39,820 nucleotides of DNA from an uncultured archaeon (GTDB lineage: Archaea > Asgardarchaeota > Lokiarchaeia > Sigyniarchaeales > SOKP01): positions 1-39,820 of the forward strand of contig CAZDTP010000036.1 in NCBI GenBank assembly GCA_964508365.1. Reading direction: 5' to 3'. Below, in pieces: positions 10,081 to 28,540 of this stretch (within the stretch, counting starts at the first letter, position 1; every line of letters begins with the position of its first letter). Position numbers and translations under genes: made by a program. The notes below the pieces were generated by a model. The model was given only the letters and a program-made list of their open reading frames with translations, ran no database searches and was not told the DNA's origin.

Positions 10081-10099
10081 TTTTTTTTAATTTTTTTTT
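10081..10099 (+). terminator. Oligo(T) archaeal terminator
   Basis: T8-AA-T9 directly after the TAA at 10080, between convergent genes. Confidence 0.6.
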
Positions 10100-11729
10100 A
10101 CTCGTTTAATCGTTTATGCGTTTTTTTCATAATTTTATAAATGTTTGTGAACTCATAGAAGAGCTTTTCGTAAACTGCTCTGTTATCGGGATTTGGTCTA
10201 AATACATTGGAAAATTGGATTAAATCTGGTATTTGATCCCAAGTTAGATATCCAAGTCCAACTGCTGCGATGAAAGCAGCCCCACGAGCATTTGCCTGAA
10301 TAGGATCTTTAACTTGCTTGATAGTTCTATTTAGGACATCGGCAAAAATTTGACACCATACATTACTAGATCCCCCTCCCCCAATGATGTTAAGTTCGGG
10401 CATTACTATATCTTTTTTTGTCATTCCAGGATTAGCTTTCATTTTCCATTTCTGGATGAATTTTTCAACGTACATATGAAGCCACCTTACATTGTAGGCA
10501 ACGCCTTCAAATATCGCTCTTATTAGGTGTTCACGCGACATCTCAAGAGATAAATTGTAAAAACCTCCACGAACCATATGATCATCAACGGGTGATCTTT
10601 CTCCGATAAGCCACGGAGTAAAAATCAAATTATTGGACCCCGCAGGAACTTTCTCAACAATTCTATCTAAAATTTTATATACATCAGGGACCTGTTCTTC
10701 TCTCAACAATTCATCTTTATGATACAAAATTTTATCTCTTAAAAATTGTAAAGCTCCTCCAGCGATTTCTTGTTCGTTTGCTACGAAATATTTTCCCTTA
10801 ATTGCAGCAGGAAAACTTCCCATATTATGAAATATATCTGTTTTCTTGTAAGGTACGTGGCATATCAGCCAATCAGATGTTCCAATGTAAATATGTCCTT
10901 CGTAATCCTTAACTGCTCCAGAACCTATAGTTGCTGCATGCAAGTCGGGAGCACCCATAATCAATCTGACTCCCTTGTTTAGACCAAGTTTGTTTGCTAC
11001 TTCGTCTTTCACGGGCCCTAGAACATCTGTGGACCACCTTAAATCAGTCGGAAATTTATCCGGATCAACTTTAAACATTTTCATTAACTTGTTATAGTAT
11101 CTCATGTTGTTAATATCGCGGATATCAACTAAGGTATGCATTTGAATGGAAGCATACGAGGCTGCGAATTTACCTGTGAATTTCAAATTAATAAAGTCTT
11201 GAGGTTCCAAAAACATGTAAGTGTTATCATATACATCTGGTCTCTTATCCTTTATCCATAAGATATGAGCAATGGGATCTTTACCAGATAAGCTTGGACC
11301 TCCTCCCGTAACCTTCACGAATTTTAGCATTTTGCGAACAGAGTATCCACTAACCTGTATTAAACTCTTATGGAATTTCTTCATGTATGGTGCTCCTCGG
11401 GTATCCATCCATATCAGTGAATTCATCAAATGATTTCCGTCTTTGTCAAGGGCAACTGTACCACTCCATTGACTTGAATTGCATACACCTACAATATCAT
11501 CAGCTGAAACTTTTCCACTATTAATGACTTTTTTAGCTGTTGAAACAATGGCATTCCACCAGTCGTCCGGATCTTGTTCAACACCCCCACCTTTTTCCAC
11601 AAGTAATGGAACTTCTTGAAAGGCCCAATCAACTACCTCTCCGTTAGTACTTACGATCGCTGATTTTGGACCTTGAGTTCCATGATCGATTGCTAAAATA
11701 TATTTAGGAGAATTTTCTTTATCTAACAT
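10098..11729 (-). CDS. FGGY-family carbohydrate kinase
   Basis: AIDHGTQGPK, SSQWSG, WMDTRG, GAPD, YIGTS, TPWLIGER, IIGGGGSS. Confidence 0.9.
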   Translation of the reverse strand: MLDKENSPKYILAIDHGTQGPKSAIVSTNGEVVDWAFQEVPLLVEKGGGVEQDPDDWWNAIVSTAKKVINSGKVSADDIVGVCNSSQWSGTVALDKDGNHLMNSLIWMDTRGAPYMKKFHKSLIQVSGYSVRKMLKFVKVTGGGPSLSGKDPIAHILWIKDKRPDVYDNTYMFLEPQDFINLKFTGKFAASYASIQMHTLVDIRDINNMRYYNKLMKMFKVDPDKFPTDLRWSTDVLGPVKDEVANKLGLNKGVRLIMGAPDLHAATIGSGAVKDYEGHIYIGTSDWLICHVPYKKTDIFHNMGSFPAAIKGKYFVANEQEIAGGALQFLRDKILYHKDELLREEQVPDVYKILDRIVEKVPAGSNNLIFTPWLIGERSPVDDHMVRGGFYNLSLEMSREHLIRAIFEGVAYNVRWLHMYVEKFIQKWKMKANPGMTKKDIVMPELNIIGGGGSSNVWCQIFADVLNRTIKQVKDPIQANARGAAFIAAVGLGYLTWDQIPDLIQFSNVFRPNPDNRAVYEKLFYEFTNIYKIMKKTHKRLNE

Positions 11730-11852
11730 ATTAAATATAAATGTTCTTAACGTAAATAAAGATTTTTTTATGTAAGGCTTTCCTATTTATATTAAGTCTT
11801 TTTAATTGACGATACCATTTAATAACTGAAAGAAACATTTTGTTGATTCTAA

Positions 11853-13250
11853 ATGGAATATGAGGAAAAATTAGCGAAAATTAAAAATATTGTTGATTTG
11901 CCCATAAGCAAATTTAAACCAGATGAATTAAAAGCTATAATAGAGAGGTATGAAAAAAATCATACGAAATCAAAAATGGCTTTTGAGAGAGCAAGAAAAA
12001 TAATCCCTGGAGGTGTAGAACATAATCTCGCCTTCAACTGGCCATTCCCTCTAGCAAGTAAGCGGGTTTTTGACTGTTACATGGAAACTGTTGATGATGT
12101 CGTTCTAACGGACTATTTAATGGATGGAGGTCCTATTATCCTCGGGCATAATCATCCGGTTTTGACAGAAAAGATTATCGAAGTTATTCGGGAAATTGGA
12201 CCATGCCATGGAATAACTAACGAATATGAATATCTTGCTGCTGAAGAACTTCAGAAGCATTTTCCATCTTGTGAAATAATAAGATGGCTCCAAACAGGAA
12301 CAGAAGCCGATATGCTAGCTATAAGGATTGCCAGAGTTGCTACAAATCGTAAATGGGTTATTAAAATAGGTGGCAGTTATCACGGATGGTCAGATCAATT
12401 GGTTTACGATATGCATGTTCCTGGAACAAAATTATTAGAATCACATGGAATACCAAAAAACATATTTAAATTTATCGATTCTTGTCCTCCAAACGATATT
12501 GAAACATTACGGCAAATGTTTGCAGAAAAGCGAAAAGTTGCTGCCGTTATAATTGAACCAATGGGGGGAGAATCAGGAGCTATTCCTGTTAAACCTGGAT
12601 TTAATAAAGAAGTGGAAGAACTTTGCCATGAAAATAATACCCTTTTGATTTCCGATGAAGTTGTATGTGCTTTTAGATTGCATATGGGTGGTGGTCAAGC
12701 TTATTATGGTTATGAACCGGATTTATCTGTGTTTGGTAAAATAGTTGGACATGGATATCCCTCCGCTGCAGCTATTGGAGGTAAAGAAGAATTTATGAAA
12801 TATTGCGCTGCAGGAGTAGGTGGAGGTAAAAGAGCTTATAGCGGAGGAACTTTAGCAGCAAATCCTTTAACTTGTGCAGCTGCGTATCATGCTATTAAAT
12901 TAGTCGAAGAAACTGGGGCGACGGAAAAAGCTGGAAAAGCAGGAACTCGCTTAGCGAATGGATTAAATAAAATGTTCGAAAAATACGAGTTACCATGGTT
13001 TTCGTACAATTTAGGTGGCACAGTTCATTTTCATACATCGTGCCTATTTGGATTGAGTTTTGATATTCCTGACCAAGTTGGACAGCTTCCATTGAGGAAA
13101 AAATTTATGGAGCATATAGGTGCCGCTTTGGTAGATCAAGAAATAATTTCCGTTGCAGGAAGTAGATTTTACATGTGTATTCTCCATTCCGACGAGATAA
13201 TCGATGAGACCGTTGAAAAAATAGATAAAATATGTCAAAAAATAGCATAA
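11853..13250 (+). CDS. Class III PLP-dependent enzyme, glutamate-1-semialdehyde aminomutase-like but divergent
   Basis: GPIILGHNHP, QTGTEA, GSYHG, IIEP, SDEV, PLP Lys in VFGKIVG, GGTLAANP. Confidence 0.85.
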   Translation: MEYEEKLAKIKNIVDLPISKFKPDELKAIIERYEKNHTKSKMAFERARKIIPGGVEHNLAFNWPFPLASKRVFDCYMETVDDVVLTDYLMDGGPIILGHNHPVLTEKIIEVIREIGPCHGITNEYEYLAAEELQKHFPSCEIIRWLQTGTEADMLAIRIARVATNRKWVIKIGGSYHGWSDQLVYDMHVPGTKLLESHGIPKNIFKFIDSCPPNDIETLRQMFAEKRKVAAVIIEPMGGESGAIPVKPGFNKEVEELCHENNTLLISDEVVCAFRLHMGGGQAYYGYEPDLSVFGKIVGHGYPSAAAIGGKEEFMKYCAAGVGGGKRAYSGGTLAANPLTCAAAYHAIKLVEETGATEKAGKAGTRLANGLNKMFEKYELPWFSYNLGGTVHFHTSCLFGLSFDIPDQVGQLPLRKKFMEHIGAALVDQEIISVAGSRFYMCILHSDEIIDETVEKIDKICQKIA

Positions 13251-13259
13251 TTTTTTTTT
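13251..13259 (+). terminator. Oligo(T) archaeal terminator
   Basis: T9 immediately after TAA 13250. Confidence 0.55.
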
Positions 13260-13372
13260 ACATTAAATAAAATTCTTATTTTTTAATTAAGTAAAACCTC
13301 TGTAGGCTAAAACAAATAATAAACTTTATTATCTCTAAACTCGAATTATACATATTCTAAAACAAAATTAAA

Positions 13373-14407
13373 GTGAAAGTTATGGGTAATCAGAATGAGA
13401 TAACAGATTCGTCAAATTTGTTTAATGATGATGGCTCCCTTGTTCAACGAGGATGGGCAAGAAAACCAATACTAAAATACAATAAAGATAAAATTGGAAA
13501 AGGTTGGTCCCGCATTAAAGAATGGGATCACTTTTCTGTATTAAATAAAAACTTCGGATTTCAGTTAACGATAGGCGACATTGGATACCTAACCCAAATG
13601 AGTTACGTTTGGTTAGATTTTGAAAAAAAAGAACGCGATGGAAAGGGGTTATTCAAATTTTTTACCAAATCAAAGGTTCTTCCATTGAATTCGTTAGAGG
13701 ACAGCGAAATTGAATTTCCTACTAAAAAATTTAAAGCAACAATCTCAAGACAGAAAAACACAAGAATACTTACTATTGAAGATCCCTCGTTTCAAGATAA
13801 AGGGCTAAAAGGAAATATTATTTTACAAGATGATCCTAAAGCTGACAATACCGTAGTTGTGACGGGATATAAAGAGGATCCAAGGTTGTTCTATTATAAC
13901 CATAAGATTAATTATATGCCTGCGGAAGGTTCTCTTACTATTGGAGATAAATCGTATCTCTTTGAACCTGAAACTTCTTATGGGCTCATGGACTGGGGTC
14001 GCGGGATATGGCCCTATAAAACTCATTGGTTATGGGGTTCAGGTTGCGGGCTTGTTGACGAAGTCCCTGTTGCGTTTAATATTGGTTATGGCTTTGGAGA
14101 TTTATCTACTCATACTGAAAATATCATCTTTTACGATGGTAAAGCACATAAGATTGATGAGGTAGAGTTTCATCACGAAAATAGAGATCCTGCTAAACCT
14201 TGGAAATTCACAAGCAACGATAATAGGTTTAATATGATTCTAGATCCAATTATTCCACAGAGAGAAAAACTTAATTTTGGATTAATTTATTTAAATTCTT
14301 CATTACTTCATGGGCTATATTCTGGAGAAGTAGTTCTTGACAATGGTGAAAAAATAAAGATTGATAATATGCTAGGACACGCTGAAGACATTTATTGGCG
14401 CTGGTAA
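13373..14407 (+). CDS. DUF2804-family protein
   Basis: GWARKP, RIKEWD, FYYNHKIN, MDWGRGIWPYKTHWLW, FNIGYGFG, TENIIF; start may be ATG 13382 rather than GTG 13373. Confidence 0.75.
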   Translation: MKVMGNQNEITDSSNLFNDDGSLVQRGWARKPILKYNKDKIGKGWSRIKEWDHFSVLNKNFGFQLTIGDIGYLTQMSYVWLDFEKKERDGKGLFKFFTKSKVLPLNSLEDSEIEFPTKKFKATISRQKNTRILTIEDPSFQDKGLKGNIILQDDPKADNTVVVTGYKEDPRLFYYNHKINYMPAEGSLTIGDKSYLFEPETSYGLMDWGRGIWPYKTHWLWGSGCGLVDEVPVAFNIGYGFGDLSTHTENIIFYDGKAHKIDEVEFHHENRDPAKPWKFTSNDNRFNMILDPIIPQREKLNFGLIYLNSSLLHGLYSGEVVLDNGEKIKIDNMLGHAEDIYWRW

Positions 14408-14437: not shown

Positions 14438-15346
14438 TTAATGATTTACAATAACTTCATAGGAATGCTGTTCAAACAATTTTGTGATAATATTTAGATT
14501 TTCATCAGTCAAATCTCCCTTATCCTGATATAAATCTCCCATTCCAACTTTCTCATATTTTGTTTTTGTTAATTTATTATAAGGCATTAAATGTATTTGA
14601 CCATCGTAACTAATTTCGTGCAAGAAGCTTATTATATGTTGAATTGTACTTCTATCTGTATTAACTCCCGGTATTAAAGGGATGCGTGGTATAATTCTTT
14701 CACTCCCTACTTTAGAGAGAATTTTAGAGAAGTTTGAGAGAATCTTTTCGTTGGGTACATGAGTAAATTTCTTATGTTTTTCACTATCAATCAATTTAAT
14801 ATCAAATAGAAATAAATCCACAAATTTAACTAATTCACCAATTAAATCTTCATTAAAGTACCCACACGTTTCTATTGCAGTATGAATCCCTTGTTTTTTT
14901 AATGCTTTAAGCAGTTCTAAAAGAAAATTGATTTGTATGGTAGGTTCTCCGCCAGAAATAGTAGCTCCTCCACCAGAATTATCGTAAAAAGGTTTATCCT
15001 TTAATACAAATTCTACAAGTTCTTCCACGGAGCTCTCTCTACCAATAATTTCCATTACTTGATTCGGGCACATTTCAGCGCATTTTCCACACATAGTACA
15101 GAGGGCTTTATCTCTCTTAATTTCGTCATTTAATAACTGAAGAGCTTTATTAGGGCAAGCTTTAACGCAAATTTCACATAATTGACATTTTTCTTTAAAA
15201 TAAGACATTTCAGGGGATAATTTTTGCGACTCGGGATTTTGGCACCAATCACACTTAAGAGGGCATCCTTTCAAAAAAATTATAGTTCTAATGCCAGGGC
15301 CATCATATATTGCATAATTTTGAATATCAAATATAATTCCGTTCAT
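14438..15346 (-). CDS. Glycyl-radical enzyme activating enzyme (radical SAM with two-ferredoxin insert)
   Basis: DGPGIRT, GCPLKCDWCQNPES (CX3CX2C), CQLCEICVKACP and CTMCGKCAEMCP, SGGEP, HTAIETCG; 8 nt downstream of the GRE. Confidence 0.95.
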   Translation of the reverse strand: MNGIIFDIQNYAIYDGPGIRTIIFLKGCPLKCDWCQNPESQKLSPEMSYFKEKCQLCEICVKACPNKALQLLNDEIKRDKALCTMCGKCAEMCPNQVMEIIGRESSVEELVEFVLKDKPFYDNSGGGATISGGEPTIQINFLLELLKALKKQGIHTAIETCGYFNEDLIGELVKFVDLFLFDIKLIDSEKHKKFTHVPNEKILSNFSKILSKVGSERIIPRIPLIPGVNTDRSTIQHIISFLHEISYDGQIHLMPYNKLTKTKYEKVGMGDLYQDKGDLTDENLNIITKLFEQHSYEVIVNH

Positions 15347-15354
15347 AAAACTCT

Positions 15355-17955
15355 TTAAACCATGGTATGTTCAGTTCTCGAAATGATTTCGTCCTGAATT
15401 TCTTTTCCTAAGTCAGTAAAATAAGCAGAGTACCCCCCTACTTTAACAATAATATTTCTATAGCTTTTAGGCTTTATCTGTGCTGCTTTTAAAACATCGG
15501 TCGATACTACAGTAGGTTGGAGTTGTTCTCCCCCTAATTGAAAGTAAGTTTTTATTAACGAAATCCATTTTTTCTTAGATTCTTCAGATTTTCCAATTCC
15601 TGAGGGATGCATTCTAATATTAACCGCACATCCCATTACATGCTCGTATTCTAAAGCAGAAACAGAACGTAATACTCCTGTAGGACCATGCTTCTCGACA
15701 TTGTAAGGATTGCAACTAGCAGCAAATGGTCGACCTCCTAACCTCCCATCAGGGGTTGCTATTGAAATTCTCCCATCATATGTATGGGTTGTCATACTAT
15801 TAATAAAAGGTGCATAAAATCCATCTCTATATGTTTTATATTTGTAAGTCTCATTAAACATATGAGAAGTTACCTTTCTAGCAAGTTCATCTGACTCAGG
15901 ATTGCCATTACCCCATTTTCCATCTAAGTCTAATATTAACTTGTGGATATGTTCATATCCATTGCTAAAATTATTATCAATCGCATTAATCAAGTCTTTG
16001 AAAGTGAATTTCTTTTGTTCAAAAATTAGATTTTTAATAACATAGAGCGAATCAATAGTATTAGCAATACTCGTCATAAATAGAATGCCTTCGCAATCGT
16101 AAATAGCACCTCCCTCAGTTATATCTCTTTTATTCTCAAGACAACCTTGCATAAAAGCTGAAATGTATGGAGCTGGGAGATATTCAGCGTATAATCTATC
16201 GCGAATTGTAGATCCTTCAACGATTTTCTTAATCATAAAATCAGACTGAGCGAAAAAGCCATCTAAAAACTCCTCAAAATTAGAAAATTTATCGGGATCC
16301 CCTGTTTTTAAACCAGCATTCTTGACCAACCCTACTAAGGTTTGCGAATCGCCATTTCTTAACGCTAAATCAAGCGTTCTGCACAATAATATTGAAGAAA
16401 ATCCTTCTCCTCCTGTCTTTCCTGGACTGCACATGTCTACACAACCTGTAACGGCGTAACTATTCGCATCTTCCTGAGTAAATCCTCTATTCAATAAAGC
16501 CTGAAGGCAAATCTCATCGTTCATTAATGATACGCTAGAGACTCCATGGTAATGTAAATCTGCAACTTTCAATAATAGTTTTTCAGGGCTATTTTTATGT
16601 ATACGCACAGCAAAATTTAATGAAGCTTTCGAACGATCAGCTGCTTCTAGCATAACATATGTCAGTTCGTTAGTTGCATCTTCTCCCTCAATCATTAATC
16701 CTCCTAATGTTACAGGCTCGGAACCTTCATATCGTTGGCTAAAATCGCTAGAAGCGTTGGAATTTGGACGCATGTTGTGACTCATGATTTTTAAAAATAA
16801 TTCCTCCAAAAGCTCTCGAGCTTCCTCAGGAGTGATTCGTCCATTAGCAACATCCCTTTCATAGAAAGGATAAAAAATCTGATCAAGACGCCCAGGTGAA
16901 TGGACATTAAAAGGCATTGCTAACTCAACAGCGTTTTTAATTATCCAATACGACTGGACTGCTTCTCTGAATGTTTCTGCTGGATAAAGGGGAACTTTTT
17001 GACAAGTTTGTAGCATTTGGTTTAATACTGCTCTTGTTGAGGGATTTGAAGTGCTTTTTAAAACATCCTCGAGTTTTTCCGCTAACCTTTTTGAATAAAT
17101 CATCACTCCTTCAAGAGCTATGTTTATTGATTCAAGGAACTCTTTTTCATGTTTTGCTAATTTTTTAGAAGCGACAATTAACTCTTGGACTTCATTCTTC
17201 ATAGCCAATAAACCTTTTAGTATTGGTTTTTCATGGTCTAAGATTAAATGCCCTTGCCATACTCCGAGAGCTGAACCAATTGAGGTCACCATATCACTTT
17301 GACCCGTAGATCGAGGTAAATTTTGAATAAAATCTCCGAACTCTCCCGGATATATGTTATTCTCAATAAAAGCCTTTCCTAGCCTATTGGCTATAGTATT
17401 TTCTTTCCAATATGGAAGAAGGTCTTTAAGAAGTAATTCCTTGTCTTTTTCTCTAATCTGGTATGGATTTATTTTCCTAATATCTAACGTATCTGTCCCT
17501 AATTCTGGCATAACAACTCCGATCTTTTTAGAGTGATCTAGAGTTTTAAGTAACCCCTCAGAGCCATACTTATCTATCATATACGACATGAAATTCTTAG
17601 TACCCTCTTTAGCAAAGGTTTTCATTGATTTCTCATCAAGCTCTACTTCAAATACTCTATTGAATAAACCTCGTTCAATGTCGATTGGAATACCCAAGAA
17701 ATTCTCTGTCCATGTGCCAGCAATTCTATCGTCCGGATCAATGTTAAATCCCATTTTTTCGAAGACATTTTTCATTGATAATGCAACACGAACATTATAG
17801 GATAATTTACTGTTTTCAGTCTCTATCCACTTTTCTGTGTAAAATTTTGCCCTTTCTATTGAAATAAAAGGCTTTTCATCGAGATATCTACCGCGGAGCC
17901 GTTTAATTCTATCACTCGCCTTATCGACCATTTCTAGAACAGTAGTTTCAGTCAT
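15355..17955 (-). CDS. Glycyl radical enzyme, PFL2/eliminase-like clade, substrate unknown
   Basis: ISIERA, SPGRLDQ, VTLGG, Cys loop GCVD (16435-16446), KWGN, ATPDGR, Gly loop IVKVGGYSAYF (15430-15444). Confidence 0.93.
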   Translation of the reverse strand: MTETTVLEMVDKASDRIKRLRGRYLDEKPFISIERAKFYTEKWIETENSKLSYNVRVALSMKNVFEKMGFNIDPDDRIAGTWTENFLGIPIDIERGLFNRVFEVELDEKSMKTFAKEGTKNFMSYMIDKYGSEGLLKTLDHSKKIGVVMPELGTDTLDIRKINPYQIREKDKELLLKDLLPYWKENTIANRLGKAFIENNIYPGEFGDFIQNLPRSTGQSDMVTSIGSALGVWQGHLILDHEKPILKGLLAMKNEVQELIVASKKLAKHEKEFLESINIALEGVMIYSKRLAEKLEDVLKSTSNPSTRAVLNQMLQTCQKVPLYPAETFREAVQSYWIIKNAVELAMPFNVHSPGRLDQIFYPFYERDVANGRITPEEARELLEELFLKIMSHNMRPNSNASSDFSQRYEGSEPVTLGGLMIEGEDATNELTYVMLEAADRSKASLNFAVRIHKNSPEKLLLKVADLHYHGVSSVSLMNDEICLQALLNRGFTQEDANSYAVTGCVDMCSPGKTGGEGFSSILLCRTLDLALRNGDSQTLVGLVKNAGLKTGDPDKFSNFEEFLDGFFAQSDFMIKKIVEGSTIRDRLYAEYLPAPYISAFMQGCLENKRDITEGGAIYDCEGILFMTSIANTIDSLYVIKNLIFEQKKFTFKDLINAIDNNFSNGYEHIHKLILDLDGKWGNGNPESDELARKVTSHMFNETYKYKTYRDGFYAPFINSMTTHTYDGRISIATPDGRLGGRPFAASCNPYNVEKHGPTGVLRSVSALEYEHVMGCAVNIRMHPSGIGKSEESKKKWISLIKTYFQLGGEQLQPTVVSTDVLKAAQIKPKSYRNIIVKVGGYSAYFTDLGKEIQDEIISRTEHTMV

Positions 17956-18042
17956 ACTATTGATCCCTAGTATATTCTTTATTTCTATATTTATATATCT
18001 CTAATTTTGGTTAATAATTTTATTCTTATAATAAATCACTCA

Positions 18043-19560
18043 TTATGATGGATTAGGAACAACCAATCCCTTCCAATATCCTATTAGATGATCATACATT
18101 CTATTAAATTCCGACTGTAATGCCTTATACTCAATTGCTTTTTTTTTATCTGGTTCGATAATGAAGCAATTCGCATTTTCTTTAAGGACAATTTCCTCGA
18201 AACTTTTAATAAATCCTAAACCAAAAGCCGCAAGTAAACCACAACCTCTCAAACTTGCTTCTGGTTCATCAGTTAAAATATGGGGGATTTGCGTGATATC
18301 TGCTTTAATTTGATAAAGTAACTTATTTCGAGTTGCTCCACCTACACAAAAGACTTGCTTGATGTCTACTCCTACATTCTTAAAAGTCTGAATATCTCTT
18401 CCAAGTGCTAAACCAACCCCTTCCATCACAGATCGCGCTATATGACCTGCCTTGTGGTTTAAAGTTAAACCAAATAAACATCCTTTTGCATATACATTGT
18501 CTTGTCTTCGTTCACCTAACAAATACGGGTAAAAGATCAATCCTTCACTTCCACTAGATATTTTTTCTGCCATTTCAATCATTTGTTCGTATGAAATTTC
18601 TCCTAAATTAACAGAACTTAAGAAATCTTTACACCATTTCATACTTAAACCACCAGTATCCAAAATAGTAAATGGAATCCACCCGTCAATTACATGCCTT
18701 AAATTTTGTACTGAAGGATTTTTTATAGGTTTATCTTTATGAACGACAAAGAGAGTGCTCGTTCCTGTCATGTCCACAGCTGTTCCTTTCTTAACTAACC
18801 CTAATCCTAGTAAAGAAACCATAAAATCCCCTCCACCTGCTATTACAGGGATGTTGGCTGGAATTCCTATTTCTTTTGAAATTTTTGCATGAGTCTTCCC
18901 AATAGTTTCATATGAGTTATTGATGGGGGCAAATTTGTTAAGATCGATGTCTAAAACTTCAGCCATATAATTTGAGTATTTGTTAGTGGTAAAATCATAG
19001 AGAAATGTCCCTGAAGCTTCACTTGGATCTGTACCAACAACACCTGTAAGTTGATAATTAATAAAATCTTTTGGAACGAGAAACCATTTAGTTTTATTGT
19101 ATATCTCAGGTTGGTTCTCTTTTATCCATTTAATTTTAAAACCTGACCACCCGGTCGTAATTGGATTCCCTGTAATTTTGTTTAGTTTCGATTCATCAAT
19201 TTTTTTTCGTATATTATTACAAATATCCTCACATCGCTTATCCATCCATATTTGGGTCCACTCTGTAGTAATATTCCCGTTATAATCAATTCCAACTGGT
19301 CCATGCATTTGTCCACAAGTACTTACACCTTTAATCGTATTTACATCTACTTTAGATTTCTTTATTACTTCAGAAATAACTTGTTTTGTCATGTCCCACC
19401 AAATTTGTGGTTTCTGCTGAGCCCAACCAGGATAGGGACTATCCACTTCTTGTAATTGCTGTGAAACTGCTAAAATCGTACCTTCTGTAGTAACAATTCC
19501 AGCTCGGATGCTTTGAGTTCCAATGTCAATTGCTAGAATGTTTATAATTTTCCTCACCAT
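18043..19560 (-). CDS. FGGY-family kinase (xylulokinase-like)
   Basis: AIDIGTQSIR, CGQMHG, WMDKR, AGGGD, MTGTS, YPYLLGER, VGGATRN. Confidence 0.9.
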   Translation of the reverse strand: MVRKIINILAIDIGTQSIRAGIVTTEGTILAVSQQLQEVDSPYPGWAQQKPQIWWDMTKQVISEVIKKSKVDVNTIKGVSTCGQMHGPVGIDYNGNITTEWTQIWMDKRCEDICNNIRKKIDESKLNKITGNPITTGWSGFKIKWIKENQPEIYNKTKWFLVPKDFINYQLTGVVGTDPSEASGTFLYDFTTNKYSNYMAEVLDIDLNKFAPINNSYETIGKTHAKISKEIGIPANIPVIAGGGDFMVSLLGLGLVKKGTAVDMTGTSTLFVVHKDKPIKNPSVQNLRHVIDGWIPFTILDTGGLSMKWCKDFLSSVNLGEISYEQMIEMAEKISSGSEGLIFYPYLLGERRQDNVYAKGCLFGLTLNHKAGHIARSVMEGVGLALGRDIQTFKNVGVDIKQVFCVGGATRNKLLYQIKADITQIPHILTDEPEASLRGCGLLAAFGLGFIKSFEEIVLKENANCFIIEPDKKKAIEYKALQSEFNRMYDHLIGYWKGLVVPNPS

Positions 19561-19581
19561 AGGTGCATTATTACGATTACG

Positions 19582-19590
19582 AAAAAAAAA
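19582..19590 (-). terminator. Possible intra-cluster oligo(T) terminator after eda
   Basis: T9 on the minus strand directly after the eda TGA; only 30 nt separate eda from the kinase start. Confidence 0.35.
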
Positions 19591-20226
19591 TCATCCGATT
19601 TCTGATTTTATTAGCGAAAGTGCTCTTTTTGTTAAGGTTTTAATCTCTTCAAAATTACCTGACGATATCAAGTTCTTATTTACAATCCAACTTCCACCAC
19701 ATGCTATAACATTATCTAATTTAAGATATTCCGTCAGAGTTTTATCGTTGACTCCACCTGTTGGCATAAAACGAACATTAGGATATGGTCCAGAAAGTAA
19801 TTTAAGCATTTTTATCCCTCCTGAAAGATCAGCGGGAAAAAATTTGAAAAAATCCAATCCTCTTTCTAAACCCCATTCTATAAAGGAAGGGCTATTAAGC
19901 CCTGGAACAATAGTAAAATTATTTTTAACGCAATAATCAACTACAGTAGGATTGAAACCAGGAGTAACTATGAATTCTGAACCTGCTTCTATTGCAGCAT
20001 TAACTTGGTCGATTTTAAGTACCGTCCCTGCGCCTACTAACATTTCTGGATACTCATTTCTTATTAAAGAAATTGATTCTGCTGCTTCTTCGGTTCTAAA
20101 TGTAATTTCAATTACTGGTAGACCAGCATCCATGAGAGCTTTTGCTAATGGAAGTGCATTTTCAGAATCTTCGATAACAGCTACAGGAATTAGTTTTAAA
20201 TTTTCTATTTTATTTATTACATCCAT
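19591..20226 (-). CDS. eda: KDPG/KHG aldolase
   Basis: IEITFRT, VGAGTV, FIVTPG, Schiff-base Lys in FKFFPA, FMPTGGV. Confidence 0.93.
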   Translation of the reverse strand: MDVINKIENLKLIPVAVIEDSENALPLAKALMDAGLPVIEITFRTEEAAESISLIRNEYPEMLVGAGTVLKIDQVNAAIEAGSEFIVTPGFNPTVVDYCVKNNFTIVPGLNSPSFIEWGLERGLDFFKFFPADLSGGIKMLKLLSGPYPNVRFMPTGGVNDKTLTEYLKLDNVIACGGSWIVNKNLISSGNFEEIKTLTKRALSLIKSEIG

Positions 20227-20242
20227 ACTTAGACCTCATGCA

Positions 20243-21109
20243 TTATTTCTTTTTAACTTTATAAATCATGTTAATTTCTGGGATAAAAATTTGGAGTTGA
20301 GAAGAACTAGATTTTCTCAAGTCTTCTAATTCTTCTTTTGTTACAGTGTTATAAGCGAACATACCAAAATGATGAACTATAAGTGCTTCAATCTTGGCTG
20401 ATTTGCATACATCTATGACTTCAGAGGTTAAAAAATTCCCAGCAATATTATTTTTTAAACGATACTCATCTCGACCATTGATAGGTAACAAAGCTAAATC
20501 TATTCTTAACTCTTTCAATTTCTTAATTAATCCATCATATGGTATACAATCCCCAGAGTGATAGATTCTTACTCCATCAAAATCAAAAACATATCCTAAA
20601 AAGTGGTGCTGTCCTTTATCGTTTACTTTAAAAGTTTCGTGAGCAGCAGCGACTCCAGTTATACTTATCTCTTTTTCCAAAGAAAGGAATTCTCCATCAT
20701 TTAACTGAATGATTTGATGGGGTTTCGCACCCCTATTAACAGCTTCTTCTAATTCTGCTGCGGGTACGATGATTTTTACTTCAGAATTCTTATCGCATAG
20801 AATTGTAATCGTTTCTGGATCCATGTGATCAGAATGAGCATGGGTGCTTAAGATATAATCGATACTTGTCAGTTGATCAAGCGATATTGGGATATCCATT
20901 AAGCGTATATGAGGAAACAACTTTCCTTTATACTTTTTTGATAGATAATCAGAAAGATAGGGATCTATTATAAAAAATTTATTTCTGAACTTGAAAATAA
21001 ACCCAGCTTGACCAATCCAAGCAATACATACTTCCTCTTCAGATGTGGATTTACTTCTAACAAAATCCTTGAGTGAATGAATACTTTCTGATCTAATTTT
21101 AATCATCAT
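20243..21109 (-). CDS. Metallo-beta-lactamase-fold hydrolase, UlaG (L-ascorbate-6-P lactonase)-like
   Basis: WIGQAGF, IDPYLS, THAHSDHMD, YHSGD, LPING, HHFGMF. Start placed at ATG 21109 (or 21106), overlapping the upstream stop. Confidence 0.85.
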   Translation of the reverse strand: MMIKIRSESIHSLKDFVRSKSTSEEEVCIAWIGQAGFIFKFRNKFFIIDPYLSDYLSKKYKGKLFPHIRLMDIPISLDQLTSIDYILSTHAHSDHMDPETITILCDKNSEVKIIVPAAELEEAVNRGAKPHQIIQLNDGEFLSLEKEISITGVAAAHETFKVNDKGQHHFLGYVFDFDGVRIYHSGDCIPYDGLIKKLKELRIDLALLPINGRDEYRLKNNIAGNFLTSEVIDVCKSAKIEALIVHHFGMFAYNTVTKEELEDLRKSSSSQLQIFIPEINMIYKVKKK

Positions 21110-22031
21110 AAATAAAACCAAGTACCATTAAAATATTATCAACTGCTCTAGACATTGCGCGATCAATACTTTCTGTAGTGAAAGCTCCTATATGTGGTGT
21201 ACAAATCGTACGAGGATGGAGAATTAAGTCATTTAGTTCGGGAGGCTCAGTCTTATATACATCTGTAGCATATATAGCAATCTTTCCATTATTTAAGCCA
21301 TCTAATATCGCAGTTTCATCAACAACTCCAGCACGAGCTGTGTTTACTATATATACACCTTTTTTCATTTTTGATATGGCTTTAGAATCTATAACGGGTT
21401 TTTTTGCAGGGGGTAGATGTAAGCTTATGAAATGAGAATTTGAGAGAAGCTCATCAAGTGAAGTATATTCAAAGTCATTAGAAGGATTGTAATTAGCAAA
21501 AGTGAACGGATCATATCCCAGTACCTTCATATGAAGTCCTAAAGCCATTGTAGCTACGCACTTCCCAATATTTCCTACACCAATAATACCTAATGTTCTT
21601 CTGTCGATCTCTATTCCTTTTATTCGTTTCCATTCTCCCTTTTTTAAATCTGAATTACACAACGGTACAGATCGCAATGATGATAACAGAAGAGTTATAG
21701 CTAATTCCGCTACTCCTTGTGCATTGGACCCAGGTGTAGTTTCAACTTTAATTCCAAGCTCTTTAGCAACTTCAAGATCGATATTTTCAATGCCAACTCC
21801 ATTTCTACTAATGACTTTTAGATTTTTTGCAGCTGTTAATACTTTTTTATTAATCACTTCTGTCCCAGCTAAATAAGCTACACATTCAGGTAAGTCCCTA
21901 AGTAGATCTTCTTCAGTTGGTCTTTGTCCAGGAGGCCCAAAGATTAGTTCCAAACCATACTTTTCTAACCTCTTTAATGTATAGTGTCCATTGGCTGTAA
22001 TTGACCGAGATCCAATATAAACTTTATTCAT
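21099..22031 (-). CDS. D-isomer-specific 2-hydroxyacid dehydrogenase (SerA-like, no ACT domain)
   Basis: SRNGVGIENID, VAELA, GIIGVGNIG, VNTAR, DVYKTEP, TPHIG; 310 aa. Confidence 0.9.
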   Translation of the reverse strand: MNKVYIGSRSITANGHYTLKRLEKYGLELIFGPPGQRPTEEDLLRDLPECVAYLAGTEVINKKVLTAAKNLKVISRNGVGIENIDLEVAKELGIKVETTPGSNAQGVAELAITLLLSSLRSVPLCNSDLKKGEWKRIKGIEIDRRTLGIIGVGNIGKCVATMALGLHMKVLGYDPFTFANYNPSNDFEYTSLDELLSNSHFISLHLPPAKKPVIDSKAISKMKKGVYIVNTARAGVVDETAILDGLNNGKIAIYATDVYKTEPPELNDLILHPRTICTPHIGAFTTESIDRAMSRAVDNILMVLGFIYDD

Positions 22032-22055
22032 GCAAGAACCCTTTTTGAAAATTCA

Positions 22056-22640
22056 TTATTTCCATTTTGGATTATCAATTATTTCAGGTTTTCCGTTCTT
22101 TTCAATAACTAATTTACGGTAACCTTTTGTTTCTATTGTTTTATAATCATGTCCGGCATCTGCACGAAATACAAAAAACATGATAAAAGGTTCAGAATCT
22201 GATATATTAATACTCCTATGGGCAAAATTCGGAGGAACATATACAGAAACTCCGGGAGTCATTTCTTGGAGTTCAACATTACCATTAAGATCTTCCATTA
22301 ACAGATAACCATGCCCATTTGTGCAATAATAGATTTCTGCAGTTTCCAACTTTTCATGGAAATGGCCCTTAGTCATAAAGTATTCATCTCCAACTTTTCC
22401 AGGATTTATTATAGTAGTACCAAACGCTAATTCACTTGATTTTTCTGGAATTCCCAGCTCATAAAATTCATAAATACAGAGATCTCCCTTCTCGAGAATA
22501 CTCTCGAGAGCTTCATTATCTAAATACATCCCTTTCATATCAGAAAGCATTCTCCTCGTAGGAATTCGATCTGGGGAATGTCCATCTTTCAAGCTAAATT
22601 TGATTGAAAACGACTTATATTTTTTCATAATAATACCCAT
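22056..22640 (-). CDS. Cupin-type (archaeal) glucose-6-phosphate isomerase family protein
   Basis: GTTIINPGKVGDEYFMTKGHFH, EIYY, AHRSIN, AGHDY; start may be ATG 22628. Confidence 0.88.
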   Translation of the reverse strand: MGIIMKKYKSFSIKFSLKDGHSPDRIPTRRMLSDMKGMYLDNEALESILEKGDLCIYEFYELGIPEKSSELAFGTTIINPGKVGDEYFMTKGHFHEKLETAEIYYCTNGHGYLLMEDLNGNVELQEMTPGVSVYVPPNFAHRSINISDSEPFIMFFVFRADAGHDYKTIETKGYRKLVIEKNGKPEIIDNPKWK

Positions 22641-22646
22641 TTATTT

Positions 22647-23600
22647 TTATTTTACTTTTAATGCTATTTTGGAAAGCTCCTCAAACTTGGGTCCACTTGT
22701 AGGAATGTTTAAGTGAAAAACTTCAGCGATTACCCTCAGCCATCCATGCAAGAAGTAAACCCAACCATCTTCTACATGTAGGTTCTTTTCTTTTTCTTGA
22801 GCTTGTGCTTGTTTTAGGAAAATTAAATCACCTCTAAAATTATAATCCCACACGAATCCATTTGCTGGAAATTCTGCAGAATCAGATAGAGGAGATCCCG
22901 GAAAATCTTTCCCTGCACCAGTTCCATTGATAACTAAAGAATAATGGTTTAAGTTATTAACAATATTATCATTATCTTCTGGTGTTGGGCAATGATGATA
23001 TTTAAAACTTATCCCTGGATTAATTTGAGCATGAATCTTTTTCATATTTTCAAGTCTGGGAATACTTCTATTAGTTACATGAATTTTAGAGGGCCAATCA
23101 TTACTTTCCATCGTTTCTATTAAGTATGTTGTAAGAGCTAAAGAAGCCCCTCCAGCACCCATTATGCAAATTTCTCCCCTCGATTTTTTCCAATGTTCTT
23201 TAGGAATAAAGGCTTCATAAGATAGACCACTTGTTATTGGATCTTTAGCATGTGCCCAGAGCTTTCCATCACTTTTAGAAATACAACTTAATTCTCCAAG
23301 AAGTTTAGCATAGGAATCTACTCCATCAAATAATTCGTAAGCAGCATCATACAAATCTATTTTATGAGAAGTTACCAATGCACCTAATGAATTCTTATCG
23401 TTCTTTATAAATTCTACGATTTCTCGGTAAACTTTAGGTTTATCATGGATTTTACAATTAATTCCAACTATCGGTGTACCTCCAATTCCTAGATATTCTG
23501 CCCAATTCGGAAAAACTCTCATGATCGATGATTTTGTTGTTGTAACTCCAATATAATAAAATGTTGGTTTTTTTGCTGGTAAAAAATCAAAGTTACTCAT
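22647..23600 (-). CDS. Shikimate/quinate dehydrogenase-fold NAD(P) oxidoreductase, non-AroE subfamily
   Basis: YIGVTTTKSSIMRVFP, GALVTSHK, AKDPIT, MGAGGAS, VTNRS, VEDGWVYF. Confidence 0.75.
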   Translation of the reverse strand: MSNFDFLPAKKPTFYYIGVTTTKSSIMRVFPNWAEYLGIGGTPIVGINCKIHDKPKVYREIVEFIKNDKNSLGALVTSHKIDLYDAAYELFDGVDSYAKLLGELSCISKSDGKLWAHAKDPITSGLSYEAFIPKEHWKKSRGEICIMGAGGASLALTTYLIETMESNDWPSKIHVTNRSIPRLENMKKIHAQINPGISFKYHHCPTPEDNDNIVNNLNHYSLVINGTGAGKDFPGSPLSDSAEFPANGFVWDYNFRGDLIFLKQAQAQEKEKNLHVEDGWVYFLHGWLRVIAEVFHLNIPTSGPKFEELSKIALKVK

Positions 23601-23628: not shown

Positions 23629-25176
23629 TTATTTTGATAAACTCTTAAAAGTTTGTTTAGTTACGGTTTCTTCTTTTAATATCATTTTTACAGTGTTTTC
23701 TGCTCCTACCATTCCCGTCACCACACCGCCAAAATTTTCACTCTGAGCACCTATAAACCAAAGACCTTTTATAGGAGTTTTATGTTGGGGAGGCGGAACC
23801 TTAAGATGTGGAACAGTTCCTCCAAAAGCGTGTTGTTTTAAATGTGTTCGCTTTTTAAAGTCTTCTGGAGTAAGAATAATTTTTGTTTTAGCGTGTTCTC
23901 GAAGACCAGGTATAAATTTTTCTGCTAAATCTAAGAGTTTTTCAGCCCATTCATCTTTATTTTCTTTCCAACTACCATTTGTAGGAATATTAGGGGCAAT
24001 AGTATAAACGGTAACTGCTTGATGCCCTGGAGGAGCCATATCGGGTGAATGTTTTGAAGGTATGTATATTAATAGTCCATCTTTTCCTTCGTGGTATATT
24101 CCTTTTTTACATTCTCCTATACTTCTATTAATATCGTAAGTAAAATAATAATAACATAACGCTGCGTCATTTTGATATATAGAGGGATCATAGTCTACGC
24201 CTAAATGTACCATAAATACCGATTCAGTAGTAAATAGAGGATCTATATATGTATTGATAAAATCTTGTGTAAGGTGCTTACTTCCTACGAGGTTTAAAAA
24301 TAATTCCTTTGCACCACCACTTGCACACACAAGATCAACCTCAACTTCTTCATGATTAGATAAGAGAACACTCTTAATGCATTCCTCTTCGATATTAATT
24401 TTGTTTATGGTAATATTAGTAAGGATTTTTCCACCTTTTTCAACAATAAATCCAGCGAGTGCAGTAACGAGACTTTCCATACCATTTTCTACATAACTCC
24501 ATGATTGTCTATGTTGATGTCTTCCGTAATCAAGAGGTACTCTTTCATCATATTGCGACTCTGCGTTAATTGTAGGTATTATTAACCCCGGAAATACTTC
24601 TGGAGATATTACATAGTCAGCTAAAATAGCAATAAATACTGCTTGGAGTTTTTTGTTTGAAAAACAATAGTCCATTAATTTCTGGGCACTCCATTCCTTC
24701 TTTCTCATAATTGGAAGGAAAGTTAAGAATAGTTTGAGCTTAGAAAGAAAACCTTCTTTGTTAACGAGTGCACTTACATCGTGAATTCTTTCGTATATTT
24801 TAAAATATTTATCTAAACCTTTAGCGTCTTCAGGAAAAAGATTTTTCAAATATTCTTTTCTCCAATAGATACCTTGAAATTCTTTAGTTCTACTAATCCT
24901 AAAGTCAGGGAAGTAATTTTCTCTGTAAGATTTAAAAGTTTTCACCTTTCCTGAAATCCCTAGTTTCTCAAGAATTTTCCTTCCAGGTTCACCCTCACCA
25001 AGATCCGGAACTAACATCTGACCCCAATCCCATTTATATCCATCTTTCTCAATCGTCGCGGTTACTCCACCAATATTCTCATGTTGTTCATATACAGTTA
25101 CGGAATGACCCTCTCTTACGAGAAGCGCGGCAGAAGTCAGTCCTGCTAAACCTGCTCCTATTACAGCGATTTTCAT
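23629..25176 (-). CDS. CrtI/RetSat/CrtISO-family FAD-dependent oxidoreductase
   Basis: VIGAGLAGL, YEQHENIGG, GGMESL-like NGMESL, SVFMVHLG, ILTPEDF, GLWFIG. Confidence 0.85.
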   Translation of the reverse strand: MKIAVIGAGLAGLTSAALLVREGHSVTVYEQHENIGGVTATIEKDGYKWDWGQMLVPDLGEGEPGRKILEKLGISGKVKTFKSYRENYFPDFRISRTKEFQGIYWRKEYLKNLFPEDAKGLDKYFKIYERIHDVSALVNKEGFLSKLKLFLTFLPIMRKKEWSAQKLMDYCFSNKKLQAVFIAILADYVISPEVFPGLIIPTINAESQYDERVPLDYGRHQHRQSWSYVENGMESLVTALAGFIVEKGGKILTNITINKINIEEECIKSVLLSNHEEVEVDLVCASGGAKELFLNLVGSKHLTQDFINTYIDPLFTTESVFMVHLGVDYDPSIYQNDAALCYYYFTYDINRSIGECKKGIYHEGKDGLLIYIPSKHSPDMAPPGHQAVTVYTIAPNIPTNGSWKENKDEWAEKLLDLAEKFIPGLREHAKTKIILTPEDFKKRTHLKQHAFGGTVPHLKVPPPQHKTPIKGLWFIGAQSENFGGVVTGMVGAENTVKMILKEETVTKQTFKSLSK

Positions 25177-25244
25177 ATCGATTTTAAAAATATTTTAATT
25201 CCATTAAACTTTTTGAATCTTAATAAAATTAATGCTTGATAATA

Positions 25245-26768
25245 ATGAAAGTCGTTGTTATTGGTTCCGGCTTAGCTGGACTGACTGCTGCTTCTTATAT
25301 GTGTAGAGAAGGTCATGATGTAATAATATACGAACAATTTTCAGAAATTGGAGGGGTAACTGCAACAATTCATAAGGATGGATATTCTTGGGACATTGGT
25401 CCCCTCTTATTGGAAGGATTAGCCCCTCACGAAAAAATTGGAAAAATTTTGACTGAATTAGGAATCTCTGATAAAGTAAGTATAATCCACGAGGATCGTG
25501 GACAGCTACTTCCCGATTTTGCTATTTGGAAGCCTAAAGAGTATAAAGGAAAGTATTGGCGCAAGGAATTCTTTAAAGAACTATTCCCATCTGAAAGTGA
25601 AGGATTAGACAGATACTATCGCTACTACGATCAAATAATGACTCTTATGGCTATTAACAATCGTTTAGAGTGGGCAAAAGGGTTAGAAGCTATTTGGTTG
25701 AAATTAAAGATTATTCCTAAATTTATGAAAGTAAAAAAATACATGGATAAAAGTGCCGCTGATATAATGGATTCTTTCTTTAACGATCCAAAATTAAAAG
25801 CGGTTTTCATGGGAATCCTTGCTGACTTTGTTGTAAAACCTAGCGAGTTCCCGGGATTAGGGGTGCCTATCTCGAATGTTGAGACTGCTTTTGATAAACG
25901 TATTCCACTTAAAATTAAAGGTGGAAAGTTACCTGTTTATCACTACATTCAAAATGGCTGTGAACAATTAGTAAACGCATTTGCAAGCTACATCAAAGAA
26001 AATGGGGGAAAAATTCACATAGATAGCTTAGTTGAAAAGATTTTAATAGAAAACAATAAAGCTGTTGGAGTTAAATTAAAAAGTGGACAAGAAATATCTG
26101 CTGATATCGTAATTGCGAGTGGTGGAGCTCATAAGACTTTTTTTAGTTTAGTAGGAAAGGAAAACTTACCTTCGGAATTCGTAAATAATGTTCAAAATTT
26201 AGTTCATATGGAATCCGTATTAATGGTACATATCGGTATTGACTTCGATCCAACTCCTCACCAGCGTGCTGCCTTATGCTATTATTATGGCACTTACGAT
26301 ATAGAAGAAGCAGTTAATCGTTGTAGATCAGGTGATTATCACGAAGGAAAAGAGGGCTTTTTAATATACATACCTTCAAAACACTCACCTGAAATGGCTC
26401 CATATAAACATCACGCAGTGACAATTTACACTATTTCTCCTTATATTCTTAGCAAGGGTGACTGGAATTTACGTAGAGAAGAACTCGCAGAAAAACTACT
26501 CATAGAAGCTGAAAAAATAATTCCCGGTCTTCGGAAACACGCTAAAACAAAGGTGATTATGACTCCATTGGATTTCAAATCTCGTATATTCGTTGAAAGA
26601 CACAGTTTTGGAGGATTAGCTCCAATTATGAATCAGCAAAATCCCCCTCATCATACTCCAATTCAAGGCTTATGGTATGTTGGAGCGCAGAGTGAATCCG
26701 GTGGTGGCGTCGCAGGGGTAGTTGCAGGAACTCGAAAAGGTGTTTTGAAGTTACTGAAAGAAATCTGA
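25245..26768 (+). CDS. CrtI/RetSat/CrtISO-family FAD-dependent oxidoreductase (paralog of 23629-25176)
   Basis: VIGSGLAGL, YEQFSEIGG, SVLMVHIG, LIYIPS, MTPLDF, GLWYVG. Start placed at ATG 25245; the track uses TTG 25236. Confidence 0.85.
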   Translation: MKVVVIGSGLAGLTAASYMCREGHDVIIYEQFSEIGGVTATIHKDGYSWDIGPLLLEGLAPHEKIGKILTELGISDKVSIIHEDRGQLLPDFAIWKPKEYKGKYWRKEFFKELFPSESEGLDRYYRYYDQIMTLMAINNRLEWAKGLEAIWLKLKIIPKFMKVKKYMDKSAADIMDSFFNDPKLKAVFMGILADFVVKPSEFPGLGVPISNVETAFDKRIPLKIKGGKLPVYHYIQNGCEQLVNAFASYIKENGGKIHIDSLVEKILIENNKAVGVKLKSGQEISADIVIASGGAHKTFFSLVGKENLPSEFVNNVQNLVHMESVLMVHIGIDFDPTPHQRAALCYYYGTYDIEEAVNRCRSGDYHEGKEGFLIYIPSKHSPEMAPYKHHAVTIYTISPYILSKGDWNLRREELAEKLLIEAEKIIPGLRKHAKTKVIMTPLDFKSRIFVERHSFGGLAPIMNQQNPPHHTPIQGLWYVGAQSESGGGVAGVVAGTRKGVLKLLKEI

Positions 26769-28307: not shown

Positions 28308-28540
28308 AATAAAAAACTCATATTTTTTAATATCCCTATTCAAATATTCCTATTTATTAAAAATAGAAATATAGATACTTTTTTTTTCTAGAAATATGTT
28401 TTATAAGTACATTTTTAAAGTTTTTTAAACATTTTCTAATTTTTATTTTGATTTATTGATCGTAAAGAAATATAGAAGGACTCAAATTAACCCTAAAAAA
28501 TTTATTCAAAATCTAGTAAAAAGGTATATATAGGAATTAG

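Follow-up and report, generated by a model that had tools for sequence, protein, structure and literature searches.

A glycyl radical enzyme cassette beside a sugar gene module in a Sigyniarchaeales archaeon: a candidate radical dehydratase ahead of a kinase and an aldolase

The window analysed here, a whole stretch of 39,820 nucleotides (contig CAZDTP010000036.1 of assembly GCA_964508365.1) from an uncultured Asgard archaeon of the order Sigyniarchaeales, carries on its minus strand a cluster of eight co-oriented open reading frames (ORFs), spaced by 6 nt, 24 nt, an overlap, 16, 30, 87 and 8 nt. The first six resemble enzymes of sugar metabolism and the last two encode a glycyl radical enzyme (GRE), which is of an oxygen-sensitive kind, and its activase. 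We conclude that the locus is a composite of two units. One is a widespread sugar module that does not depend on a GRE, made up of an FGGY kinase, a cupin-type phosphoglucose isomerase (PGI), a dehydrogenase of the shikimate dehydrogenase (SDH) fold, a metallo-beta-lactamase (MBL)-fold hydrolase, a 2-hydroxyacid dehydrogenase and the aldolase Eda; the other is best read as a mobile cassette of the activase and a GRE whose catalytic loop reads CVD. An earlier note on this DNA, made from its letters alone, had listed the same eight genes and gaps, together with a T tract, an AT-rich spacer and a TATA-like element, and all of these are present.

The first gene of the cluster (22647-23600) encodes a protein of 317 aa without a Pfam match and with weak matches to AroE NCBIfam models; its likeness to shikimate dehydrogenases, proposed in the earlier note, emerges in the AlphaFold2 model (pLDDT 86), for which the top Foldseek matches are AroE shikimate dehydrogenases (TM 0.64-0.70) and which also matches the 5-ketofructose reductase 7cok. 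It is a candidate sugar-phosphate 1-dehydrogenase or keto-reductase. The second (22056-22640, 194 aa; PF06560, E 3.9e-33) aligns over its full length with the archaeal cupin phosphoglucose isomerase of PDB entry 1j3p (E 8.6e-56) and keeps the cupin metal motifs GHFH...E and H. The third (21099-22031, 310 aa; PF02826 and PF00389) is a D-isomer 2-hydroxyacid dehydrogenase of the phosphoglycerate dehydrogenase-like kind, scoring 247 bits against TIGR01327, under the cut-off of that model. The fourth (20243-21121, 292 aa; PF12706 and PF13483) is an MBL-fold metallohydrolase and a candidate phospho-lactonase. It had been called a UlaG-like lactonase: the fold stands, while the likeness to UlaG holds at superfamily level only (46.8 bits against a cut-off of 306). 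The remaining two assignments, of an aldolase for KDPG (2-keto-3-deoxy-6-phosphogluconate) and of an FGGY kinase, agree with the profile searches. The KDPG/KHG aldolase Eda (19591-20226, 211 aa; PF01081, E 1.8e-69) exceeds two curated cut-offs (TIGR01182, 252 bits against 156; NF004325, 270 against 241), and the FGGY carbohydrate kinase (18043-19560, 505 aa; PF00370 and PF02782) is xylulokinase-like, with 348 bits against the XylB model, below its cut-off of 380.

Two features read from the minus strand interrupt this series. Directly past the eda stop codon lies a tract of nine T (19582-19590), a possible archaeal terminator, and between the kinase and the GRE lies an AT-rich spacer of 87 bp (17956-18042). 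The spacer contains a TATA-like element, ATATATAAATATA, at 17998-17986 (31-43 nt upstream of where the GRE begins) and could possibly serve the GRE and activase as a promoter of their own.

The GRE (15355-17955, 866 aa) has the architecture of its superfamily, a barrel like that of pyruvate formate-lyase (PFL; PF02901, E 1.2e-140) followed by a C-terminal Gly_radical domain (PF01228, E 1.2e-19). Its key residues are His236, Cys505, Asp507 and Gly841. The radical-bearing Gly841 sits in KVGGYS, an Arg-to-Lys variant of the RVxG[FWY] loop, and the catalytic Cys505 in GCVD; among 120 relatives of 59-98% identity, KVGGYS is found in all and GCVD in 118, and Cys505, Gly841 and His236 are invariant across the clade. 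In a HMMER alignment His236 falls on His164 of glycerol dehydratase, the diol-dehydratase histidine for which a general-acid role is described (PMC13450708). The clade departs from the 1,2-eliminases in the Cys loop: all characterised GREs that eliminate across C-O, C-N or C-S bonds keep a CXE motif, with a Glu two residues past the catalytic Cys (2026 review, PMC13450708), where this clade has Asp. The activase (14438-15346, 302 aa), separated from the GRE by the 8-nt gap, is a GRE-activating radical-SAM enzyme (TIGR02494, 347 bits, cut-off 174) with its CxxxCxxC motif as CPLKCDWC at residues 28-35 and two extra ferredoxin-like cysteine motifs.

Comparison with characterised GREs places the enzyme near the eliminases and outside each named family. 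It stays under every NCBIfam equivalog cut-off, reaching 380-440 bits at best against cut-offs of 1000-1100 (HypD, CutC, HpsG, HpfG). In HMMER searches the 1,2-eliminases (HpsG, glycerol and propanediol dehydratases, HypD, CutC) match with E values of 1e-103 to 1e-111, the structures of PflD/YbiW with 4e-84 (8yjo) and 2e-74 (8yjn), benzylsuccinate synthase (4pkc) with 4e-56 and PFL with 4e-23. The PFL-type Cys-Cys pair is absent from the G-C-V-D loop, and the PFL model TIGR01255 gives 95 bits against a cut-off of 994. The best-scoring solved relative is HpsG (6LON, E 2.6e-111), and the Cys and Gly loops align with those of HpsG and HpfG. HpsG anchors the sulfonate through Arg183 and Arg672, which have no equivalent in the window GRE (the former aligns to Leu, the latter to a gap), and the loop here reads CVD rather than CTE; from the Arg/Gln/Arg triad of the C-S lyases HpsG, IseG and IslA, the Gln position alone is shared. 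With the glycerol and 1,2-propanediol dehydratases (PDB 1R8W/1R9D and 5I2A; E 1e-105) the window GRE has in common the fold, the domain order, the G-C-V-x Cys loop and the His164 equivalent, and the activases of both kinds bear extra ferredoxin motifs. It differs from them in having Asp for the catalytic Glu and KVGGYS for RVxGY, and from glycerol dehydratase in an N-terminal part some 60 residues longer and in a Phe where Asp447 would align. The surroundings differ too, being sugar genes here and microcompartment or diol genes there.

The genome of the window holds eight GRE paralogues. The CVD type is restricted to the window GRE and a copy 67% identical to it on contig C1 (C1:72127-74709), and the other six, on contigs C50, C4, C34, C17, C132 and C71, have canonical GC[VL]E loops. 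The paralogue on C34 contains an in-frame TAA.

What company does this GRE keep in other genomes? Close relatives (87-89% identity) retain the whole cluster. A tree of 58 GRE sequences, L112 added, read together with the gene neighbourhoods, reveals four Asgard subclades, each within about 1 kb of an orthologue of the FGGY kinase and beside the five-gene block of the module (loci are cited by number where they need telling apart). The arrangements differ: the colinear cluster of the window itself; a colinear cluster with a GRE of another subclade and a 117-aa PFL-like remnant (L031/L066); the five-gene block divergent from kinase, GRE and activase (L030/L061); and kinase (+), GRE (-) and activase (+) in L112. 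In a fifth form, an MFS_2 transporter, Eda, activase and GRE stand together (L063, L065, L067, L215, L216) in genomes in which the SDH-like gene and the FGGY orthologue were not found. Other subclades have the activase as their lone partner. The remnant (L031:9209-9562) has the kinase on one side and, on the other, a complete GRE from another subclade, and locus L064 has the order GRE, activase, GRE; this suggests an ancestral tandem pair and turnover of the GRE cassette at the site. At L030:8384-9864 two ORFs, of 247 and 248 aa, together make up the FGGY orthologue, and GRE and block are kept.

The association extends to whole genomes and to bacteria. Among 300 sampled genomes of the phylum, the clade GRE occurs in 21, the SDH-like gene in 15 and the FGGY orthologue in 15; 14 genomes have both of the latter, and 13 of these 14 also have the clade GRE. 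The FGGY orthologue and the SDH-like gene are found together in 14 of 16 genomes. On four bacterial contigs (L003, L211, L220, L221) a different cluster is found, in the order GPH transporter, GRE, GRE, activase, iron-dependent alcohol dehydrogenase (Fe-ADH), FGGY kinase, DeoC, cupin-type PGI, aldehyde dehydrogenase and 2-hydroxyacid dehydrogenase; the kinase is 53-55% identical to that of the window and the DeoC aldolase lies above the TIGR00126 cut-off (202 bits against 117). The four Asgard arrangements, the 13 of 14 genomes and the bacterial cluster bear out the co-occurrence of GRE orthologues with these sugar genes that the earlier note had anticipated.

The module itself has a far wider range (loci L117-L191, L192). 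A profile search yielded at least 588 related SDH-like loci in species-level genomes, and neighbourhoods were counted for 73 newly fetched loci from many phyla, aerobes included. Among them the SDH-like gene is accompanied by a cupin PGI in 61, an FGGY kinase in 55, a 2-hydroxyacid dehydrogenase in 53, an MBL protein in 53 and Eda in 32. Rhizobium, Brucella, Burkholderia and Bythopirellula are among the aerobes that hold the module free of a GRE. The modules of Rhizobium leguminosarum pSK01, Brucella pituitosa and Bythopirellula polymerisocia share with the window an orthologous SDH-like protein (52-64% identity), the cupin PGI, 2-hydroxyacid dehydrogenase, MBL protein, FGGY kinase and often Eda, all clustered; unlike the window they are GRE-free and come with ABC or RhaT transporters, a zinc-dependent alcohol dehydrogenase (Zn-ADH), an SDR-family oxidoreductase, an Fe-ADH and an RpiR regulator. 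Facing the module in Brucella pituitosa and Rhizobium leguminosarum are genes for a sugar ABC transporter, an FGGY kinase, SDR, Zn-ADH and Fe-ADH enzymes and an RpiR regulator, with no dehydratase in the module loci of either; loci from Phycisphaerae and Spirochaetaceae resemble these. In the GRE-less bacteria the kinase-side position is taken by polyol or aldehyde oxidoreductases (Zn-ADH, SDR, Fe-ADH) and a sugar transporter, and these NAD-dependent enzymes may fill the same front-end position as the GRE does in the window. Some Asgard genomes likewise have the five-gene block with no GRE within 7-10 kb. NCBI names for the bacterial genes are generic only, and in the literature on the gene combination, on cupin PGI clusters and on 3-deoxy-sugar phosphates we found no description of the six-gene module or of the GRE clade. 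As judged from enzyme families, the set of six would be suited to turning a 3-deoxy-ketohexose into KDPG with no dehydratase step.

Taken together, these observations point to a GRE that is probably an optional feeder step for the module and not its missing dehydratase. We consider it likely, at about two chances in three, that the GRE cassette is functionally linked to the kinase and aldolase genes, because the association has survived rearrangements and the replacement of one subclade by another and is met again, with another aldolase, in bacteria. The reading we favour, to which we give a probability of about 0.45, is that the GRE, as a radical dehydratase, converts a polyol or sugar taken up by the cell into a deoxy sugar on which kinase and aldolase then act. 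The simplest chemistry would be an eliminase-type dehydration of the imported compound to a deoxy-carbonyl sugar. The activase would place the radical on Gly841, Cys505 would take a hydrogen from a carbinol carbon of the substrate, and Asp507, in place of the usual Glu, would with His236 help the neighbouring hydroxyl to leave; the product would then be phosphorylated by the FGGY kinase. The archaeal gene set would isomerise a 3-deoxy-ketose phosphate, oxidise it to a lactone, open the ring and oxidise C2, giving a KDPG-type acid that Eda would cut to pyruvate and glyceraldehyde-3-phosphate. Its bacterial counterpart would hand a 2-deoxy-aldose phosphate directly to DeoC. While gene families, motifs and co-occurrence are observed directly, we infer which class of substrate is used, with what regiochemistry, and in which order the steps run; so ordered, every archaeal module enzyme would have a role and no separate dehydratase would be called for. 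A bolder form of the proposal, that these enzymes constitute a new class of GRE sugar/polyol dehydratase with Asp for Glu, producing deoxy sugars without oxygen or redox cost (3-deoxy sugars in Asgard archaea, 2-deoxy sugars leading to DeoC in sulfate-reducer-like bacteria), we put forward tentatively and regard as rather doubtful.

Several observations weigh against a dedicated role for the GRE in sugar breakdown. First, only one of the 73 module loci, from an Asgard archaeon, has a GRE, and the 72 others, aerobes included, are without; an Asgard genome that is 95% complete (G192) has the block and the kinase and no CVD-type GRE. We know of no source of a 3-deoxy sugar in any of the GRE-less bacteria. 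Second, FGGY, Eda or DeoC is present in the fetched flanks of only 19 of 107 distinct GRE-clade loci (of the 51 that extend 3 kb or more on both sides, 13 have one), and nearly all loci that have one of them are at 60% GRE identity or above; other loci carry URO-D/corrinoid genes (eleven) or TetR (nine) and MFS genes. Third, all the Asgard examples fall within two related families, and some of the linkage may be inherited synteny. Finally, to judge by the T9 tract and the TATA-like spacer, module and cassette may be transcribed separately.

The same facts feed the alternative that the cassette is functionally independent, a self-contained unit for some other small molecule that stands here through inherited synteny or because the site receives accessory genes. 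That most clade loci lack sugar genes and have recurrent TetR, MFS and URO-D/corrinoid partners, that the module is so widely GRE-free, that module and GRE lie on separate contigs in several Asgard genomes, that the units have a possible terminator and promoter between them and that the fragment in L031 suggests cassette turnover would all be expected of such a unit. Against it, the adjacency of GRE and module outlasts four rearrangements and four GRE subclades, a bacterial cluster separately joins a GRE to an FGGY kinase, cupin PGI, 2-hydroxyacid dehydrogenase and aldolase, and co-occurrence at genome level reaches 13 of 14. We hold independence to be possible, at well below even odds.

A second alternative would have the GRE replace Edd or gluconate dehydratase, dehydrating a (6-phospho-)aldonate across C2-C3 to the 2-keto-3-deoxy acid on which Eda acts. 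The window indeed resembles the Entner-Doudoroff pathway and its semi-phosphorylative variants in having an Eda above cut-offs and, in the upstream place of Zwf and Pgl, a candidate dehydrogenase and lactonase; it differs in the absence of Edd from the genome, the SDH-fold dehydrogenase, the MBL-fold lactonase candidate and the additional 2-hydroxyacid dehydrogenase and FGGY kinase. The arrangement of MFS_2, Eda, activase and GRE in genomes where the SDH-like gene and the FGGY orthologue were not found would suit direct supply of Eda, as would the skeleton CO-CH2-CHOH-CHOH-CH2OH that 2-keto-3-deoxygluconate and 2-deoxyribose have in common and that could account for Eda in archaea and DeoC in bacteria. 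The lack of an Edd-type enzyme in the genome also counts in favour of this alternative.

The earlier note had reasoned that an Eda without a source of substrate makes the GRE its dehydratase. As it had said, no conventional sugar-acid dehydratase lies within the window, and the genome has no Edd: both genes of the IlvD/Edd family score as IlvD, with 249 and 275 bits against the TIGR01196 (Edd) cut-off of 708. The genome-wide search it had proposed nevertheless returned several conventional dehydratases outside the window, namely these two IlvD-type enzymes, two enolase-superfamily proteins, one of the altronate/galactarate type (GD_AH) and UxuA. The last belongs to a hexuronate operon (Zn-ADH, SDR, UxuA, UxaC, UxaE; C28:10469-11503 and neighbours, L193) without an aldolase of its own, and the Eda of the window is the single Eda-family match in the genome search. 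Since the genome offers conventional substrate sources, the presence of Eda alone does not call for a new dehydratase, and because the sole Eda would also have to serve the UxuA operon, the genome may keep it beside the GRE without the GRE needing it. The argument from a missing dehydratase is further undercut by the 72 of 73 loci in which the dehydratase-less module does without a GRE. Replacement of Edd would moreover leave the 2-hydroxyacid dehydrogenase without a function, and the module occurs with Eda in aerobes. We therefore consider it unlikely. For a time the minimal cluster of Eda, activase and GRE was a candidate for strong proof of a GRE-to-Eda flow; we tempered this, given that the single Eda of the window's genome would also be needed downstream of the UxuA operon. 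One of the IlvD-type genes (C40:25748-27418, L101) is grouped with an RraA-like aldolase, a GPH transporter, an aldehyde:ferredoxin oxidoreductase and a LarA-like protein, and this cluster may encode a non-phosphorylative sugar-acid route.

Third, the GRE could feed the sugar genes by some other elimination or ring opening, for instance by breaking a C-O bond in an anhydro- or O-methyl sugar, or a C-S or C-N bond. PflD and YbiW provide precedents for GREs that act on sugar phosphates and feed aldolases: they are the C-O lyases for anhydro-alditol 6-phosphates in 'anhydroglycolysis', and a class I aldolase cuts the deoxy-keto product (PMC13450708). The logic of a GRE acting on a sugar derivative ahead of an aldolase is shared with the window, while the partner aldolases are Fsa-type there and Eda or DeoC here, where an FGGY kinase and four more enzymes are added. 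The GRE matches PflD and YbiW more weakly than it does the eliminases, which argues against membership of that group, and no anhydro-sugar-specific genes were recognised. That the best PDB match is a sulfolyase speaks for C-S cleavage, and the loss of the two sulfonate-binding arginines of HpsG speaks against it. Sulfatase and glycoside hydrolase genes near related loci, and the URO-D/corrinoid methyltransferase genes that follow the activase in L031 and are found at 11 of 80 metagenome loci, count in favour of this alternative. On balance we think this very unlikely.

URO-D-family methyltransferase and B12-binding genes adjoin clade GREs at L004, L031, L227, L228, L236, L247, L249 and L252-L256, mostly with more distant members of the clade, which hints at a methylated substrate for those distant enzymes. 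The distant bacterial members have no common theme of context beyond TetR, MFS and tandem GREs.

Two further candidates were rejected. A sulfoquinovose or 2,3-dihydroxypropane-1-sulfonate (DHPS) pathway, with the GRE as DHPS lyase and the module enzymes as sulfonate counterparts of phospho-sugar enzymes, is at odds with the missing HpsG arginines, and no sulfite-handling genes were seen. Action of the GRE on a diol formed after aldol cleavage is unlikely, as the products of Eda and DeoC (pyruvate or acetaldehyde with glyceraldehyde-3-phosphate) yield no diol.

A role for the GRE as alkyl- or benzylsuccinate synthase, which has been proposed for GREs of Hermodarchaeota (PMC8163825), is hardly credible: the single-Cys loop and some 30% identity to X-succinate synthases, features on which that Asgard proposal also rests (PMC8163825), are outweighed by far stronger eliminase matches (E about 1e-105 against 4e-56 for 4pkc), by flanking gaps of 87 and 8 nt that hold no ORF and leave no room for small beta or gamma subunits, by neighbours that are sugar genes and transporters and by the conserved eliminase-type His.

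The favoured reading, a radical dehydratase supplying the kinase and aldolase, concerns a large clade with members in Asgard archaea and in anaerobic bacteria and with another residue at the catalytic base. Gene context narrows the likely substrates to sugar alcohols, sugars or sugar acids, names coupling enzymes for an assay and argues against regarding Asgard GREs of this type as hydrocarbon-activating enzymes. A recent survey lists no archaeal PFL-like GRE with an assigned function and whole clades without tests (2026 review, PMC13450708); if the bolder form of the proposal is true, this would be the first such assignment. It would also mean a so far undescribed route through kinase, isomerase, dehydrogenase, lactonase, 2-hydroxyacid dehydrogenase and KDPG aldolase, and a function for a six-gene module of hundreds of bacterial species. 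With its generically named genes in those at least 588 genomes, the module lends itself to study in cultured Rhizobium, Brucella, Burkholderia and planctomycetes.

Upstream of the cluster lie two divergent FAD oxidoreductases of the CrtI/amine-oxidase family (23629-26768), kept in the closest relatives. On an unrelated metagenome contig, a CrtI-family flavoprotein (L224:3-1300) 64% identical to that at 23629-25176 adjoins a cluster of GRE, Fe-ADH and FGGY kinase, for which reason the flavoproteins may belong to the system. Beyond them, two MFS_2 (GPH-type) sugar transporters on the minus strand (26850-29980; PF13347) are likely uptake genes, with orthologues flanking the module or the GRE in L031, L063-L067, L083 and L215/216. 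On the other side of the cluster, at 10098-14407, are a second FGGY kinase, a protein of the class-III aminotransferase fold and a DUF2804 protein, and this flank is syntenic beside the GRE in several genera (L015, L031, L065, L067, L206, L213, L215, L216, L239, L262).

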